NCBI GenBank assembly: GCA_041659045.1
Contig: JBAZZB010000001.1
Location: forward strand, 134,111 to 198,110
DNA length: 64,000 nt
Origin: Patescibacteria group bacterium
GTDB lineage: Bacteria > Patescibacteriota > Patescibacteriia > SG8-24 > DYFX01
Direction of reading: 5' to 3'
Shown here: in pieces, positions 1-13,748 of the stretch
Position numbering within the stretch: the first letter of the stretch is position 1
Layout of the letters: the number at the start of each line of letters is the position of its first letter
Program-made: the position numbers and the translations under genes
The notes under the pieces: generated by a model
The model's database searches: none
Seen by the model: the letters and a program-made list of their open reading frames with translations, nothing else
What the model was told of the DNA's origin: nothing

Positions 1-248
1 GCCGTGTGCTCGAAGCGGTGGTGCCTCGTTTCTTAGAGGGTTTCCGCGTCGAGATGGCACTCAACTATGCATGTCGCGCGCGCGGTTGGCGGTACGGATC
101 GATTCCGACGCTCGGTGTCGGTCAGGTTCGCAAGATGCAAAAGATTGGCTTTTGGCGGGGACTCGCTGCGTATGCCAAAATGATTTGGGAAATCGGCGAC
201 GCGCTCATCCGTGTTCGACTAGCAAAAAAAGAATTTCTGCACACATGA
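1..248 (+). CDS. C-terminal fragment of an unidentified protein; the gene starts upstream of the window
   Basis: The frame is open from the window edge. The TGA at 246-248 overlaps the murD ATG at 245 (ATGA), which suggests a co-transcribed real gene. Confidence 0.4.
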   Translation, partial: RVLEAVVPRFLEGFRVEMALNYACRARGWRYGSIPTLGVGQVRKMQKIGFWRGLAAYAKMIWEIGDALIRVRLAKKEFLHT

Positions 249-1669
249 CGACCGTATTACGCGACAAAAAAGTGACAGTGATGGGTCTTGGTGTGAACCA
301 GGGTGGTTTGGGTGTTTCGAAATGGTTGCTACGCCAGGGCGCGCGCCTCACGATTACGGATTTGAAAGATCGTCACGCGCTCGCGGCGTCGATCGAGGAA
401 TTGGAAGCGCTGCGCGTCTCGCTTGGAAAAAAAGCGCACAAAGTTCGATATGTGCTCGGCGAGCACCGCGCTGAAGATTTTAAAGACGCGGATCTGGTCA
501 TTCAGAATCCGGGCGTGCCGCGCGATTCCGTGTTCTTGAAAATCGCTCGCAAGGCCGGTGCGCTGATCGAATCGGATATGTCGATCTTCTTCCGTTTGTG
601 TCCGCAAATGATCGTTGGCGTCTCGGGCACTAAAGGCAAGACGACGGTCACCGCTCTTCTCGGAGCGATGCTCGAAGCCTCTTTTGGTCGCGTTTTCGTG
701 GCGGGGAACATTCGAAAATCGGCGCTTGCCTACGTGATGGAGGCGAAAAAGGAAACGCCGATCGTTTTGGAACTTTCTTCCTGGCAGCTTGAAAGCCTCA
801 AGGCCGTCGAGCGCAGCCCGAACATCGCCGTTCTCACGAACGTACTGCCGGATCACCTGAATCGATACGACGGCATGAAGGATTACGCCGCCGCTAAAGA
901 ATTGATTTACGCTTGGCAGCTTCCGACGGATATTGCGATTGTTCCTTACGACAACGCCTACACCAAAAAAATGGGCGCACGCGTACGCGGCGAACGTTTT
1001 TGGGCTTCGATGAAACCGATCGCGGACGAACAGAACGGTTTGTACTACAAGAAGGGGAAGGCGATTGCGCGCGCACAAGGTATTGAAACAGTGTTGTTCG
1101 AAGAGAAAGATGTGCGACTGCCGGGCGCGCACAATCTTTGGAACGCGCTTTTGGCCGGAGGCGCTGCTTTTCTGCGCGGGGCGAAACCTCTCTCTATTCG
1201 AAAAGCACTTCGTTCGTTCAAGGGCGTACCACATCGTCTTGAGTTCGTACGCGCCATCAAGGGTATTTCCTATTGGAACGACACGGCCGCCACGACACCG
1301 GAAGCCTCAATAGTCGCGATGGAAACACTTTTCTTGAAAAAGAAAGGTGTGCTTATTGCCGGCGGAGCTGACAAGGAACTGAAGTTTTCCGAGTGGGCAA
1401 AGGCTGTGAAACGTTTTGCGAAGGAAGTCATTTTGTTTGAAGGGACAGCAACACCGAAAATGGTAAAAGCGCTCAAAAAAGAAGGTATGCCAGTCGGCGA
1501 AACGGTATCGTCCATGCATGACGCTGTTCGTCACGCCGCGCGCGCTGCGGAAAAAGGGGAGTCCGTCCTACTTTCACCGGGATGTGCCTCTTTTGGCCTG
1601 TTTGTGAATGAATTTGATCGTGGTGATCAGTTTGGTGTTGAAGTGCGCGAGCTTCACACGAAGCGGTAG
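245..1669 (+). CDS. murD: UDP-N-acetylmuramoylalanine--D-glutamate ligase MurD
   Basis: Translation MTTVLRDKKVTVMGLGVNQGGLGVSKWLL...VSGTKGKTTVTALLGAML...SPGCASFGLFVNEFDRGDQF carries the MurD N-terminal GxGxxG motif, the Mur ligase P-loop and the MurD C-terminal motif. ATG at 245. Confidence 0.9.
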   Translation: MTTVLRDKKVTVMGLGVNQGGLGVSKWLLRQGARLTITDLKDRHALAASIEELEALRVSLGKKAHKVRYVLGEHRAEDFKDADLVIQNPGVPRDSVFLKIARKAGALIESDMSIFFRLCPQMIVGVSGTKGKTTVTALLGAMLEASFGRVFVAGNIRKSALAYVMEAKKETPIVLELSSWQLESLKAVERSPNIAVLTNVLPDHLNRYDGMKDYAAAKELIYAWQLPTDIAIVPYDNAYTKKMGARVRGERFWASMKPIADEQNGLYYKKGKAIARAQGIETVLFEEKDVRLPGAHNLWNALLAGGAAFLRGAKPLSIRKALRSFKGVPHRLEFVRAIKGISYWNDTAATTPEASIVAMETLFLKKKGVLIAGGADKELKFSEWAKAVKRFAKEVILFEGTATPKMVKALKKEGMPVGETVSSMHDAVRHAARAAEKGESVLLSPGCASFGLFVNEFDRGDQFGVEVRELHTKR

Positions 1670-1738
1670 TCGCACTTGAGCGAGGCCGTGGGTGCGTATG
1701 AGAGTGAACTGTGGTATACTGAGGACGGTTTTTCCACT

Positions 1739-2516
1739 ATGATTACACGAATTTCGCGCCGCTTTGCGAAGGCTTCAGTCGTCGCGCTCGCGACACTTCT
1801 GACGAGTACGTTCTCAGCGCTGGCCGTCACGTCGATCGGTACCACTTGGCGCGCGGGTATCACGATCTGGTGCTGCCGATGCCGTCCGTGGATGCAACCG
1901 CGAAACTGCGCGTGCAGCTTGTCGCTGATGGCGGCGCAGTCTTAGCTTCTGATGACTCCGATGCGACGTTCTTGATTGATGTTCCAGATTCTATCACGCC
2001 ACCACCACTCGGAGACGGGGGCTGCCGGAGGCGTATGATCCGTTGGCGACCATTGATAGTGACAAAGGCTTGGTGGAAGCCGTAACGGCGCTCGGAGCGT
2101 TTTGCAAAGGAAATAAACTGATCAAATTGAAAGACGACGGGAATCCCGTGACGCAATATGGTAGCTCAGTCTATTATTGTGGTCGCGACGGAAAACGGTA
2201 CGTCTTTCTGAGCGTGAAAATCTATGCGACGTGGTACGTGGACTTTTCGAACGTGTACGTGATTACGGCCCAAGAAATGGCAGCGCTGCCTCTTGGGGGG
2301 AACGTGACGTATCGACCAGGTGCTCGACTCGTGAAAATTCAAAGCGATCCGAAAACCTACACCGTCAGTCGAAATGGGCTTTTGCGGCACGTGCCGGATG
2401 AGGCGACGGCCATCGCGCTTTTTGGAACGTCGTGGAGCGGCCTTGTTGATGACATCGACGTTGCGTTCTTCTTGAATTATCGCATCGGCCAGCCGCTCGC
2501 GCCGATCGCACCGTAG
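1739..2516 (+). pseudogene. Frameshifted gene for a secreted protein. The signal peptide is in frame 2, the middle in frame 1, and the C-terminal domain in frame 0. The C-terminal ~110 aa are paralogous to the C-terminus of the M23 peptidase at 12717-13748.
   Basis: ATG at 1739 encodes MITRISRRFAKASVVALATLLTSTFSALA|VTS, a clear signal peptide. Natural-looking protein continues in the +1 frame (GYHDLVLPMPSVDATAKLRVQLVADGG...DSITPPPLGDGG). After a 5-G homopolymer at 2017-2021 it continues in the third frame (LPEAYDPLATIDSDKGLVEAV...YYCGRDGKRYVF...GGNVTYRPGARLVKIQSDPKTY...). This C-terminal part is about 50% identical to residues ~230-343 of the protein at 12717-13748. Confidence 0.55.
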
Positions 2517-2594
2517 CCCGTACGAGTCCTCGCGGCTCCGGCGCGTCATTCGCGAATGGCGCGCCTTGCTGATGAGGGTGTTTTTTTATAAGCT

Positions 2595-3953
2595 GTGCAG
2601 GCTATGTTTGCCACAATCAAGAAATTCGTCCCGAAACCGATTATCCGGCTCTATCACTGGGCTTTGGCGCTTTTGGCCGCTGCCTGGTACGCCTGGCCTT
2701 CAAAGAGACTGATCGTGATCGGTGTGACGGGTACCAACGGCAAAACCACCGTTGTGAACCTGATTGCGCGTATTTTGGAAGAAGCAGGGGAGAAGGTTGG
2801 ACTCACCTCTACCGTGAATTTTCGCGTTGCGGGTGAGGATGTGCTCAACGACAAAAAAATGACGATGCCAGGCCGTTTTTTCTTGCAGAAGATGTTGCAT
2901 CGCATGGCGGAGGCTGGCTGCCGCTACGCCGTGATTGAAACGTCATCGCAAGGCCTCGATCAATTCAGACATCTTGGCATTGAGTACGATGTTGCTGTTT
3001 TCACCAATCTGACACCAGAGCACATCGAAGCGCATGGTGGATTCGAGAAATACAAAACCGCGAAACTGAAACTCTTTCATCATCTCGTGAAACATAAGCG
3101 CAAGGTCGTGCCGATGCGCGGCGACGTGAAGAAAACGATCGTCGTGAATCTTGAATCGGAGCACGCATGGGATTTTCTTGACGCTCCGGCTGACAAGAAG
3201 TATGGCTTCCTGGCCGATGGTGCGGAGAAGCCGGCTGGCAACGCGGCTTGGCCGATGGCGATCGTGAAAGCACTCGACGTACAGCTCAGGCCTGATGGCT
3301 CGAGTTTTATCGTGCGCGATGCACGTTTCGATCTGAAAATGCCGGGACGCTACAATGTCTTGAACGCAATGGCAGCTATTTCCGTCGGGTTGTCTCAAGG
3401 GATCCCGCTCGAAACGATGGCGAGAGGTCTTGCGAAAGTCGATAATGTCCCAGGACGCTTCGAACGTATTGAAGAGGGTCAGGATTTTAGCGTTATCGTC
3501 GACTACGCGCCGGAGCCGGAATCGTTGCGCCAAGTCTACGCCGCCGTCGAGCGTCTGCCGTACAGGAATATCATCCATGTGCTTGGCTCGGCTGGTGGCG
3601 GACGTGACGTGGCTCGCCGGCCGATCCTTGGAGCACTTGCGGGCGAGAAAGCTGACGTTGTCATCGTCACCAACGAAGATCCGTATGACGACGACCCGCG
3701 CTTGATTATCGAACAGGTGTCTGCGGGCGCGATCGAGTCAGGAAAAAAAGAAGGGGAGACACTTTTCAAGATCGAAGATCGTCGCGAGGCAATCGCCAAA
3801 GCTGTCGAAATGGCTGCGGCAGGCGATGTTGTCTTGTTGACGGGGAAAGGTGCTGAGCAAGCGATTGTTGGGCGAGGAGGCAAAATGACGCCGTGGGACG
3901 AACGAGTCGTGGCGCGTGAACTGGTACGCCGACGCCTCGGCAAGCTACAATGA
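2595..3953 (+). CDS. Mur ligase family protein, MurE-like (UDP-MurNAc-tripeptide synthetase), with an N-terminal hydrophobic helix
   Basis: Translation has GVTGTNGKTTV (P-loop), DNVPGRFE, VDYAPEPESL and TNEDPYDDDPR, which are MurE/MurF-type motifs. The N-terminal IRLYHWALALLAAAWYAW segment is predicted transmembrane. Start GTG at 2595 or ATG at 2604. Confidence 0.7.
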   Translation: MQAMFATIKKFVPKPIIRLYHWALALLAAAWYAWPSKRLIVIGVTGTNGKTTVVNLIARILEEAGEKVGLTSTVNFRVAGEDVLNDKKMTMPGRFFLQKMLHRMAEAGCRYAVIETSSQGLDQFRHLGIEYDVAVFTNLTPEHIEAHGGFEKYKTAKLKLFHHLVKHKRKVVPMRGDVKKTIVVNLESEHAWDFLDAPADKKYGFLADGAEKPAGNAAWPMAIVKALDVQLRPDGSSFIVRDARFDLKMPGRYNVLNAMAAISVGLSQGIPLETMARGLAKVDNVPGRFERIEEGQDFSVIVDYAPEPESLRQVYAAVERLPYRNIIHVLGSAGGGRDVARRPILGALAGEKADVVIVTNEDPYDDDPRLIIEQVSAGAIESGKKEGETLFKIEDRREAIAKAVEMAAAGDVVLLTGKGAEQAIVGRGGKMTPWDERVVARELVRRRLGKLQ

Positions 3954-3957
3954 AGTC

Positions 3958-4563
3958 ATGAGTCTTGAACGTCAATTAGGGCTGCGTGACGAGGAATCGC
4001 TCTTATCCGTCGTACGACGAGCCGCCGCGACGATGATTTTGCCGTTGTGTCTTTCGGCGATCCTCCTTCTCGCACCTCTCGTACTGCTCGTGCCGCTCTT
4101 GCGCCTGGGGTGGTACGGACAAGCTGTGATCGGCATTTCGCTTGTTGCTGGGCTTCTGGTAGGCCTACGAGCACTGCTTGATCGACAGGCATCGTTTCTG
4201 GTTGTGACGGATCAGCGCGTTATTTACGTCCGTCAGCATGGACCCTTCGACCGGCATGTCACCGAGCTTTCGTATTCCCGCATACAGCGCGTCTCCTACC
4301 GCGTAAAGGGGCTCATCCCGACGCTCTTTCGGCATGGATCGCTGATTCTCGAATCTGCGGGAGGCGAAGAACCTCTGACAATCGAACGCGTTCCCGACCC
4401 CGCGCGCGTGCAGGACTTGATCAATCAAATCCAAAGCGGCGGTCACGGTGGCTTTGGTGACATGTTGCAGTCCGTTTCCAAACTTGATCCGCGTCAGCTC
4501 GGTCTCTTGAAGGCCGAGATCGACCGCTCGCTCCGTCACCTTCCTCCAGAGGAACGCCCGTGA
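3958..4563 (+). CDS. Membrane protein with bacterial PH (bPH_2/YdbT-like) domain
   Basis: ATG at 3958 lies 5 nt after the stop of the upstream gene. Two TM helices are followed by ...FLVVTDQRVIYVRQ...SYSRIQRVSYRVKGL...LILESAGGEEPLTI, a bPH-like pattern. Confidence 0.55.
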   Translation: MSLERQLGLRDEESLLSVVRRAAATMILPLCLSAILLLAPLVLLVPLLRLGWYGQAVIGISLVAGLLVGLRALLDRQASFLVVTDQRVIYVRQHGPFDRHVTELSYSRIQRVSYRVKGLIPTLFRHGSLILESAGGEEPLTIERVPDPARVQDLINQIQSGGHGGFGDMLQSVSKLDPRQLGLLKAEIDRSLRHLPPEERP

Positions 4564-4576
4564 TAGCATTCACCCT

Positions 4577-5041
4577 ATGCGTAAGACGTCTGAACGCGCT
4601 CCACGACGCCTTGGGTGGCTGGTCGCAGGACTGGCTGTCTCGTCTCTTCTGGCTGGAGTCGGTTTTGCCCGAGAAGCGCTGCGCACCCGCCAAATCGATC
4701 GAGAAATCCAAGCGCTTCGCCAGGAAGCCGACAAGTTGCGCATCCATAACTTCCAGGTTTCTTCGCTGCAGGCTTCGCTCGACAGCGGAGAGTTCCTCGA
4801 ACGTGAAGCGCGGATGAAGCTCGGTCTTCAGAAAGAGGGGGAGCAGGTCGTGGTGCTTCGGAAAGATGCTGTGAAGCCTTTGCCCGAGACCGCAGAAGGG
4901 CCCGCCGCCCGAAGTCTCGCTGAAGGCTGGTCAAACACAAAAAAATGGTGGAATTATTTCGCTGATCCGCATGCCTTCGCCGAATATGCCCGAACCAACA
5001 GCGTTGCCGGCTCGTCCGCATCCGCTCATCCATCACGGTAG
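4577..5041 (+). CDS. ftsB: Septum formation initiator family protein (FtsB/DivIC-like)
   Basis: Single N-terminal TM, a coiled coil, then the motif FLEREARMKLGLQKEGEQVVVL typical of FtsB/DivIC. Confidence 0.7.
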   Translation: MRKTSERAPRRLGWLVAGLAVSSLLAGVGFAREALRTRQIDREIQALRQEADKLRIHNFQVSSLQASLDSGEFLEREARMKLGLQKEGEQVVVLRKDAVKPLPETAEGPAARSLAEGWSNTKKWWNYFADPHAFAEYARTNSVAGSSASAHPSR

Positions 5042-5972
5042 GCCGCCTCGGAGCCGCCGTTTTTATGCGCTGATCATCGCAGGCGCCGCGCTTTTTTTGC
5101 TGGTGTTTGGTTTCGGTTTGTATCGCTACAATTGGAACGGGGGCGTGACGCAAATCCTTACGAATGTTTTACCGTATCCGGCAGCGATCGTTGATGGTCA
5201 CGTGATACGCTTTTCCGATTATCAAAACAATCTCACCGTGCTCCAACGTTTTTACGAAGCAGAGCGCGAGCGCGCCGCACCAGGTTCAGCTTTTCCGAGC
5301 GAAGCGGAACTCAAAGCGCGTGTTCTCGATCGTTTGATTAAAGATCAGTTGGCGTTTGGGCTCGCGGATCGTTATGAAATCGTCGTGACATCGGAATCCG
5401 TGCGCGCGGCATACGACGAAACGATTCTCGATCAATCTTCGCTCGATTCGCCGACCGGGAAAGCGAAGGCAGAAGCACGAGCGGCGGAAACGCTTGATGA
5501 TCTCTATGGGCTTCGACCGTCCCAATTCAAGAATCGTGTGCTGCACCCGTTTCTCCTTCGTCAAAAGCTCGAGCAGGCGATTCAGAATGACGCGGAGCTG
5601 AATGCGGAAAAGTATAAAAAAGCCGAAGCGGCCTTGGCAGAGTTGAACGCCGGCAAGGCGTTCAAGGACGTTGCAATGACGTACAGCGAGGATTCGAATG
5701 CGGCCGCGACGGGCGGCGACCGAGGCATGATCGGACGCGGTCTTTTGCCTCCTGAGGTCGAAGCGGCTGCGTTCGCGCTCTCTCCCGGCGAAACAAGCGG
5801 CATTGTAAAGAGCGCTCTGGGGTACCACGTTCTGCGCGTGATCGAGCGACAGGAATCCGGCAGCACGGTTTTCAAGGTCAAATTACAAGAAATTCTGGTG
5901 CGCCCCATCCAGCTTGATGACTATCTGGAAGCCCAGAAAAAGACGGCCTCGATTACGGTTTTCGTCCATTGA
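4971..5972 (+). CDS. Peptidyl-prolyl cis-trans isomerase, PpiC/parvulin type (PrsA/SurA-like), membrane anchored
   Basis: N-terminal TM (FYALIIAGAALFLLVFGFGLY) and a C-terminal rotamase domain (AFKDVAMTYSEDSNAAATGGDRGMIGRGLLPPEVEAAAF...GYHVLRV). The start is uncertain (4971 or 4986 ATG); it overlaps the ftsB-like 3' end. Confidence 0.75.
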   Translation: MPSPNMPEPTALPARPHPLIHHGRPPRSRRFYALIIAGAALFLLVFGFGLYRYNWNGGVTQILTNVLPYPAAIVDGHVIRFSDYQNNLTVLQRFYEAERERAAPGSAFPSEAELKARVLDRLIKDQLAFGLADRYEIVVTSESVRAAYDETILDQSSLDSPTGKAKAEARAAETLDDLYGLRPSQFKNRVLHPFLLRQKLEQAIQNDAELNAEKYKKAEAALAELNAGKAFKDVAMTYSEDSNAAATGGDRGMIGRGLLPPEVEAAAFALSPGETSGIVKSALGYHVLRVIERQESGSTVFKVKLQEILVRPIQLDDYLEAQKKTASITVFVH

Positions 5973-5998
5973 ATCTTCCGAAGGATTCCGGTACCCTT

Positions 5999-6024
5999 GG
6001 CACGTCGCTCGCGAACGACGTGCC
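5999..6024. promoter_or_regulatory. 26-nt near-perfect palindrome GGCACGTCG-CTCGCGAA-CGACGTGCC (copy A of a 2-copy element)
   Basis: Inverted arms of 9 nt with an 8-nt spacer, followed directly by cTTGACG. A near-identical copy lies at 26998-27023 upstream of umuD. No U-tract follows, so it is not a classical intrinsic terminator. Confidence 0.35.
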
Positions 6025-6042
6025 TTGACGCGAAAACGGCCT

Positions 6043-6116
6043 GCGGGTATCGTACATCGGTAGTATGCGACCTTCCCAAGGTTGAGAGACGGGTTCGATT
6101 CCCGTTACCCGCTCCA
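6043..6116 (+). tRNA. tRNA-Gly (anticodon CCC)
   Basis: Cloverleaf: acceptor GCGGGTA/TACCCGC, anticodon stem CGACC/GGTTG with loop TTCCCAA, T-arm ACGGG-TTCGATT-CCCGT, 3' CCA encoded. Confidence 0.85.
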
Positions 6117-6117
6117 T

Positions 6118-6193
6118 GCCACCTTAGCTCAGCCGGTAGAGCAATGCTTTCGTAAAGCAGAGGTCCGGGGTTCGATTCCCCGAGGTGGCTCCA
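6118..6193 (+). tRNA. tRNA-Thr (anticodon CGU)
   Basis: Acceptor GCCACCT/AGGTGGC, D-arm GCTC-AGCCGGTA-GAGC, anticodon loop TTCGTAA, T-arm CGGGG-TTCGATT-CCCCG, CCA encoded. It lies 1 nt after tRNA-Gly. Confidence 0.85.
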
Positions 6194-12716: not shown

Positions 12717-13748
12717 ATGACTGCAAGACCTGGTTTGTTTCTGCTTAAAAAGTCGCTCGTTATCGTCTGCGTTCTTGCGGCAAGTTTTTCGGCGTTTCCG
12801 ATCAAGGCCGAGGTGATTCGACCAATCATGTTTCCTGTTCAAGGCGAGGCCTACTACACGGACACGTTCAATGATGGTCGTAGTGGCGGCCGCTCGCATG
12901 AAGGGATCGATATCATGGCTGCCAAGATGACGCCTGTTGTGGCTGTTATCGATGGCCGTATTCGCTGGCTCACGGAAACTGAAGCGTCCTATGGTTGGAT
13001 GGTGGTGATGGAAGATTCCGAAGGGTACGAATATTCCTATATCCATTTGAACAACGACACGCCTGGTACAGACGATGGCTTGGGGGGACGCGAGCGCGCG
13101 ATTGCTCCAGGTATCGAGGATGGTGCTTCTGTTACGAAAGGCCAGCTCATCGGCTGGGTTGGTGATTCTGGAAACGCTGAGAATACCGCGCCGCATTTGC
13201 ACTTTGAGATTGAGGAGCCCGGAGGTTTTGCGATCAATCCTTATTGGACACTGCTCGCCGCCGAGCGTCCGGGACGTTTTGATCCAGAAGCTGCGCGGCT
13301 TGTGAGCCCTGATATTAATACGGAGAAGCAGCTCACGGTTCGTCCTGAGGCGGAAGTGCATTGTCTCTCCGGATCGCTCATCAAGTCGACGGCGGCGAGC
13401 GCGGTGTATTTCTGTGGCGCTGACGCGAAGCGTTACGTGTTCCCGAATGACAAGACGTACTTCACCTGGTACGCGGATTTTTCTTCCGTGCTTACGTTGT
13501 CAGCGACCGAGCTTGCCGCGATTCCGATCGGCGGCAACGTGACGTATCGTCCGGGTGTGAAACTGCTCAAGATTCAAAGCGATCCGAAAGTCTATGCGGT
13601 CGATCGCCAAGGCACGTTGCGTTGGGTGACGACGGATACGCTTGCGAAGGCGATGTACGGCACCGCTTGGGCCAAGCAGGTTCACGATCTTTCGGACGCC
13701 TTCTTCATCAACTATAAGGTGGGCGACCCGATCACGAGCGCGGAATAG
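12717..13748 (+). CDS. Secreted M23 family metallopeptidase with a C-terminal domain of unknown function
   Basis: Signal peptide. M23 motifs GRSHEGIDI and GDSGNAENTAPHLHFEI. The C-terminal ~110 aa (AVYFCGADAKRYVF...GGNVTYRPGVKLLKIQSDPKVYAV...) is paralogous to 2043-2516. Confidence 0.85.
   Translation: MTARPGLFLLKKSLVIVCVLAASFSAFPIKAEVIRPIMFPVQGEAYYTDTFNDGRSGGRSHEGIDIMAAKMTPVVAVIDGRIRWLTETEASYGWMVVMEDSEGYEYSYIHLNNDTPGTDDGLGGRERAIAPGIEDGASVTKGQLIGWVGDSGNAENTAPHLHFEIEEPGGFAINPYWTLLAAERPGRFDPEAARLVSPDINTEKQLTVRPEAEVHCLSGSLIKSTAASAVYFCGADAKRYVFPNDKTYFTWYADFSSVLTLSATELAAIPIGGNVTYRPGVKLLKIQSDPKVYAVDRQGTLRWVTTDTLAKAMYGTAWAKQVHDLSDAFFINYKVGDPITSAE

Follow-up and report, generated by a model that had tools for sequence, protein, structure and literature searches.

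A probable deletion remnant of two secreted-protein genes between murD and a Mur ligase gene in a Patescibacteria genome

The segment 1739-2516 of the 64,000-nt stretch of Patescibacteria DNA analysed here (the window) is most probably a pseudogene remnant produced by one large deletion and one point frameshift, a reading that can be given a probability of roughly 0.85. The initial annotation had treated the segment as one gene carrying two frameshifts; comparison with relatives does not bear this out, as the signal peptide comes from a different gene, here called X, and at the first shift a deletion has joined X to the gene that follows it, Y. The ancestral order would have been murD, X, Y, Mur ligase, with X and Y coding for secreted proteins of ~620 aa and ~414 aa, respectively. 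A deletion of ~2.3 kb would have taken X from codon ~36 on together with the first ~187 codons of Y, and the promoter region, start codon and signal peptide of X would thereby have been fused at 1843-1846, out of frame, to the rear of the Y Ig-like domain. A further loss of 1 nt in the G run of the linker (2017-2021) would then have moved the conserved C-terminal domain (CTD) into a third frame. Translation from the ATG at 1739 would stop at 1943-1945, with the CTD left as a signal-less ORF at 2043-2516. Since the CTD is left without a signal peptide, the exported protein would have been lost, and what remains at the locus is likely to be without function.

On this reading the locus exemplifies the ordinary decay of genes in a bacterium with a small genome (Patescibacteria). 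With deletion-derived pseudogenes of reduced genomes it shares an internal deletion spanning two genes, an out-of-frame junction and a secondary frameshift in a homopolymer, as well as flanking conserved genes, murD and the Mur ligase gene, that are untouched. Its sole distinctive trait in comparison to ordinary deletion remnants is the retained signal peptide of X, which mimics a single gene in three frames; a signal peptide kept beside a deletion junction can thus pass for the beginning of one frameshifted gene, and this may serve as a warning. Wider interest lies only in the ~130-aa CTD, a member of a large unmodelled family of Patescibacteria envelope proteins with a confidently predicted fold. 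Cell-surface modules are central to the host attachment of Patescibacteria episymbionts, and for this reason the CTD deserves a family definition.

Reading Frames and Orthologues

The window derives from a Patescibacteria (CPR) MAG, and its ORF 2043-2516 belongs to a contig of 646 kb. Three-frame translation of positions 1676-2520 yields in frame A, from the ATG at 1739, the textbook signal peptide MITRISRRFAKASVVALATLLTSTFSALA...; in frame B, from about 1846, LARGYHDLVLPMPSVDATAKLRVQLVADGGAVLASDDSDATFLIDVPDSITPPPLGD; and in frame C, from 2019/2022 to the stop codon at 2514-2516, LPEAYDPLATIDSDKG..., which codes for the CTD (Table 1). In this translation each frame change amounts to one missing base. 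The succession of signal peptide, middle segment and CTD in three frames across 1739-2516 is thus as originally described, and so is the placing of the second shift at the G5 run, within which the single-base gap of the window falls in DNA alignments with orthologues. A first frame change is likewise present; its position, given before as near 1846-1860, is slightly upstream at 1843-1846.

Table 1. Coordinates of features in the window and of the corresponding genes in the related contig L004
Sequence	Feature	Position	Strand	Frame or basis
Window	Extended -10-like element TGgTATACT, 5' of the retained X start	1712..1720	+	read from sequence
Window	X' remnant, first ~35 codons (signal peptide) of X	1739..1842	+	frame A; blastn, tblastn, alignment A3
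Window	X'/Y' deletion junction, 4 unaligned bases CACT	1843..1846	+	two blastn blocks
Window	Y' middle, codons ~188-243: last three Ig-like strands and Pro-rich linker	1847..2016	+	frame B; tblastn
Window	G5 run with 1-nt deletion relative to orthologues, frame B to frame C	2017..2021	+	alignment gap
Window	Y' CTD including stop codon	2022..2516	+	frame C
Window	WC866_00730, GenBank hypothetical protein, TTG start, 157 aa	2043-2516	+	annotated ORF (protein P0001)
Window	Intact M23 peptidase; C-terminus (~13398-13739) is the second CTD copy	12717..13748	+	Pfam, BLASTP, tblastn
L004	murD	93-1511		
L004	Gene X, secreted protein, N-terminus MTKRFSYRHAKVSSIVLVSLATLLTGAFSALAVTSIGTD...	1558-3435		
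L004	Gene Y, 414 aa	3440-4684		
L004	Mur ligase	4774-6123		

Close orthologues were obtained from the CTD homology search, namely P0002 (78% identity to P0001), P0003 and P0004, with contigs L001, L002 and L003, the last being contig CAZKMF010000161.1 of GCA_964553975.1; a scan of GTDB species genomes supplied further relatives. The search for intact orthologues that had been proposed for this locus finds Y as a single ORF, in a single frame, in the contigs of seven relatives (L001, L002, L004, L025, L008, L006 and L007). The Y protein begins with a signal peptide and continues through an N-domain, an Ig-like domain and a Pro-rich linker to the CTD. The Ig-like domain is complete in the Y of L004, L025, L008, L006 and L003, and Kre9_KNH and Big_7 Pfam matches below threshold are seen in L006 and L008. 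The gene order in L004, L025 and L003 is murD, X (a secreted protein of 616-625 aa), Y (414 aa) and Mur ligase.

Deletion Joining X to Y

Aligned to L004 by blastn, the window falls into two colinear blocks: positions 153-1842 correspond to L004 1-1697 (76% identity) and positions 1847-3968 to L004 4002-6138, leaving 2304 nt of L004 (1698-4001) without a counterpart in the window. The same two-block pattern is obtained with L025. At the protein level, a tblastn search with X and Y of L004 finds at the locus only X residues 1-46, which align to window 1739-1867, and Y residues 188-240 (frame +1) and 245-409 (frame +3). Alignment A3 shows conservation of the murD-X spacer and of the opening ~35 codons of X as far as ...GTCACGTCGATCGGTAC, where similarity to X ends and similarity to Y starts; the X' remnant includes an identical stretch, GCGCTGGCCGTCACGTCGATCGGTAC, after which similarity is lost, and L025 matches X' as well. 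The junction itself changes the frame, passing from frame A of X to frame B of Y. Coding sequence is therefore missing as well as disrupted: what is left is confined to residues 1-~38 of X and 188-414 of Y, and the frame is broken by the out-of-frame junction at 1843-1846, the loss of 1 nt at 2017-2021 and the frame A stop at 1943-1945.

Compared with L004, L008 and L003, the Ig-like domain of Y' is reduced to its last three strands, and therefore even a "repaired" product would be structurally incomplete, with half of that domain absent. X and Y are complete in three lineages, and the version in the window is truncated and out of frame; a deletion in the lineage of the window is therefore the parsimonious account, and parsimony together with the truncated Ig-like domain would favor this direction over an insertion elsewhere.

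Two other explanations of the 5' part of the locus were considered and rejected. Compensating indels around 1800-1845, suggested by the alignment to L001, do not hold, as L004 shows this stretch to be homologous to X, not to Y; and derivation of the signal peptide from a degenerated Ig-like strand is likewise discarded on the homology to gene X seen in L004.

Gene X, lost from the window, codes in L004 (1585-3432) for a protein with repeated "NDS(T/S)RY(L/F)TVSST..." segments and, at its C-terminal end, a domain that contains Cys. Its sole above-threshold Pfam match, to ScfRs (E = 1e-7), is probably spurious.

Upstream of the retained X start, alignment A3 shows GTGGTATACTG unchanged in the L004 spacer between murD and X. 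The TGgTATACT element may function as a promoter, judging from its sequence; a simple consensus -35/-10 promoter scan did not call it. Past 1842 the open frame of X' continues, now out of frame, as far as the stop at 1943-1945. Initiation at ATG 1739 would accordingly yield a 68-aa product (1739-1945) in which the signal peptide is followed by a Cys-rich out-of-frame tail, TTWRAGITIWCCRCRPWMQPRNCACSLSLMAAQS, a product that is probably meaningless.

Reality of the Two Lesions

A different pipeline produced the Logan assembly of SRR18595301, whose 10.4-kb contig L083 matches window 1660-2530 at 100% identity and differs from the window overall by 1 base in 5516; if this contig derives from the MAG's own run, the identity excludes assembler artefacts, not systematic read errors at the G run. 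The check by an independent assembly that had been recommended for both shift sites thus returns both lesions in identical form and no continuous ORF.

Codon-usage tiling of the window and inspection of suspicious ORF pairs bring out genes that are long and unbroken (862, 681, 599 and 591 aa, among others), and by these means a further clearly frameshifted gene is not visible within the 64 kb. The G5 at 2017-2021 is one of 42 G/C runs of at least 5 bases in the window, in which A/T runs reach up to 8; none of the other 41 G/C runs breaks a gene, nor do the longer A/T runs. At the junction 1843-1846 (GGTAC-CACT-TGGCG) there is neither a homopolymer nor a repeat that could explain a misjoin.

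These observations bear on the reading in which the locus is a normal single secreted-protein gene and both frame changes are sequencing or assembly indels. That each change amounts to one missing base, and that one of them lies in a homopolymer, is in keeping with such a reading. However, the N-terminus is homologous to another gene, X, 2.3 kb that the relatives possess are missing, and repair of both sites would still leave half of the Ig-like domain absent. The junction is not a homopolymer, the independent assembly is identical, and no other gene in 64 kb is broken despite the 41 other G/C runs and A/T runs of up to 8. A normal gene misread in this way is thus very improbable. The assembly indels that had been offered as one explanation are disfavored by the identical Logan contig and by the 41 G/C runs that break no gene; assembly error is unlikely, and the lesions are most probably real.

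The junction 26-mer has no match in the JGI metagenomes, and a protein-guided scan of these metagenomes returned distant family members only, with no close orthologue among them.

The Second Frame Change

The L001 protein aligns to the window by tblastn in frame +1 at 1846-2016 (70% identity) and then in frame +3 from 2022, and L001, L002 and L004 all read through the site of the second shift in one frame. On the basis of these alignments the second shift can be taken as a true loss of 1 nt.

Contingency loci are recognized by a homopolymer or short tandem repeat, typically of 7 or more units, in an ORF or promoter. The locus resembles such phase-variable loci in that a surface-protein gene carries a frameshift within a G run, and in L003 a C6 run of this linker shows a +1 change of independent origin. 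The initial annotation had accordingly raised phase-variable expression through the G tract, to which programmed ribosomal frameshifting may be added as a second way of making the gene switchable. Both are scarcely credible. Unlike contingency tracts, the run has 5 bases only, far fewer than those known, and is 1 of 42 such runs in the window. In the alignments the run is absent at this position from L001, L002 and L004, and its length is equal in the two assemblies compared, such that neither conservation of the tract nor length polymorphism is found. The gene is moreover already truncated upstream: correcting the frame at the run would still give Y' neither a start in frame nor a signal peptide, the upstream junction being also out of frame. 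As to programmed -1 frameshifting, the site reads GAC GGG GGC and has no canonical X XXY YYZ slippery heptamer, and the relatives encode Y in one frame. The Pro and Gly codons that abound in the linker account for the concentration of homopolymers, and hence of indels, in this region, and the second shift is better regarded as a simple loss of one base within a remnant.

In L003, which is a different MAG, two genes (395-1138 and 1095-1634) are called in place of one Y. The lesion there is the +1 change at the C6 run of the Pro-rich linker (L003 1095-1110), and the split is read as an independent inactivation at a homopolymer, reflecting a mutational hotspot together with dispensability of the gene, and does not speak for a switch.

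State of the CTD Remnant and of the 157-aa ORF

Between Y' and L001, dN is 0.15 and dS 0.93 (dN/dS about 0.15-0.16), and of 51 conserved columns the CTD remnant departs from the family in 4, a figure usual for intact members. Neither dN/dS against L001 nor the conserved columns thus point to relaxed selection. Since the CTD carries no excess of damaging substitutions and no signal of long-term decay, inactivation appears to have been recent. The initial annotation had offered a decaying paralog as one explanation. A decaying, non-functional locus agrees with the present findings; a whole-gene paralogue of the M23 peptidase does not, as the domain alone is common to the two.

The same values would suit a working stand-alone CTD protein, in which case the 157-aa ORF (2043-2516) would only lately have been released from its export signal. 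Intact and annotated, this ORF has a GGAGG 9 nt before its TTG start; it keeps the conserved residues (all but the 4 of 51, as in the family generally), and its dN/dS is 0.15. However, the low dN/dS represents the history before the lesions, and the TTG is a start of convenience within a segment conserved in the orthologues (ATIDxDK). In fully inspected homologues, furthermore, the CTD is found in proteins with an N-terminal signal peptide or extracytoplasmic domains, and a cytoplasmic copy would be separated from its presumed target. A newly functional cytoplasmic protein is therefore unlikely, and the ORF is better viewed as the 3' fragment of the Y pseudogene; WC866_00730 should be flagged as such in annotation. 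Residual expression or function of the CTD ORF is possible but unlikely.

The GGAGG (window 2029-2045) stems from conserved Pro-Glu-Ala codons, and the signal-less CTD fragment might still be translated from it.

The Interval between murD and the Mur Ligase Gene

The interval between murD and the Mur ligase gene (window 1670-2590) differs in gene content among L003, L004, L008 and L025. L003 has X and Y with an extra beta-lactamase-like gene, and L008 has Y without X and 2.5 kb more sequence after Y. Nucleotide identity between the window and L001 is about 75% over Y' and rises to about 95% at 2568 and beyond, the jump at 2508-2568 falling in the spacer 5' of the Mur ligase gene, and dS between the two is 0.93 for Y' vs 0.29 for the Mur ligase. 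By this comparison 2508-2568 would be a recombination boundary, and the Y cassette a divergent allele between near-identical flanks. The interval looks like a recombining island of surface-protein genes that has been almost emptied in this genome. The island sits inside a cell-wall synthesis and division cluster.

The CTD Family and Its Predicted Fold

Over 132 aa the CTD shares 51% identity with the C-terminus of the protein encoded at 12717-13748 (BLASTP, E = 2e-46), which agrees with the ~50% first estimated, and that protein is an M23 peptidase (Peptidase_M23 PF01551, 72.6 bits vs a cut-off of 28.7, E = 3e-20). By tblastn the window holds two CTD copies only, at 2106-2513 and 13398-13739. 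No Pfam or NCBIfam model matches the CTD, and a sequence-profile search of the PDB with the CTD alignment gave no relevant relative, the hits being to the cupredoxin domains of some alignment members and, spuriously, to antibody VYYC motifs. Homologues elsewhere, whose absence would have weakened the paralogy interpretation, are on the contrary abundant: grouped at 50% identity, the matches of an exhaustive phmmer search form about 4,060 clusters at E <= 1e-3 and 637 at E <= 1e-30. In these proteins the CTD either directly follows the signal peptide or lies C-terminally in proteins as long as ~3,000 aa, and its partners include M23, PG_binding_1, DUF3048, fn3 arrays, cupredoxin and subtilase. 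PG_binding_1 often directly follows the CTD.

Structure prediction of the shared domain, also proposed at the outset, was run with AlphaFold2 on a 42-sequence alignment and gave a confident model (pLDDT 90.1, pTM 0.82) that consists of two similar beta-beta-beta-alpha-beta-alpha units and may resemble the repeats of EccB. Comparison of the two halves with each other by hhalign gives weak support to an internal repeat (P = 7e-4 over 17 columns). The best PDB matches in Foldseek are the soluble domains of EccB1 and EccB5 of ESX systems (E = 9e-4, probability 0.98), a weak fold match with a TM of about 0.3 over whole chains. Lower in the Foldseek results is a weak match to 6ist, a phage endolysin wall-binding domain, and in a viral structure library the best matches are small uncharacterized actinophage proteins, with weak matches to lysins.

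The EccB repeats have been reported to resemble the wall-binding PlyCB, although peptidoglycan binding by the repeats is, according to the same authors, experimentally undemonstrated (PMC4769845). No publication linking EccB with Patescibacteria was found in a literature search. The CTD may be likened to the EccB repeats and PlyCB in its two beta-beta-beta-alpha-beta-alpha units and best PDB fold matches, and in its extracytoplasmic, cell-envelope context with fusion to M23 and PG_binding_1. It differs from EccB in that there is no relation at the sequence level (Pfam, NCBIfam, PDB) and a TM of only about 0.3, and in that EccB has four repeats and a central domain whereas the CTD has two repeats and lacks the context of an ESX system. 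With the wall-binding domains of phage endolysins, such as the CBD of LysIME-EF1, it shares the character of a small module on a peptidoglycan hydrolase; its fold matches to 6ist and to phage amidase and CHAP lysins are weak and not significant (E about 0.1-2).

On the strength of the EccB/PlyCB-like units in the model and of the M23 and PG_binding_1 partners, the ancestral role of the CTD may have been cell-wall anchoring or targeting. The duplicated cell-wall module, possibly peptidoglycan-binding, of the initial annotation stands as a real, shared and uncharacterized module, its association with the wall being plausible. A broader and tentative proposal, rather less likely than not to hold in full, is that the CTD is a previously undescribed, very widespread surface-anchoring or target-binding module of Patescibacteria and that the murD-to-Mur-ligase interval is a recombining surface-gene island, in the course of being lost from this genome. 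If this were true, the CTD could tether M23-type hydrolases and large surface proteins to the peptidoglycan of the cell itself or of its host.

The CTD motif AVYYCG draws spurious hits to framework 3 of antibody heavy chains (AVYYCA; alignment A2), which is a trap for automated annotation of this family.
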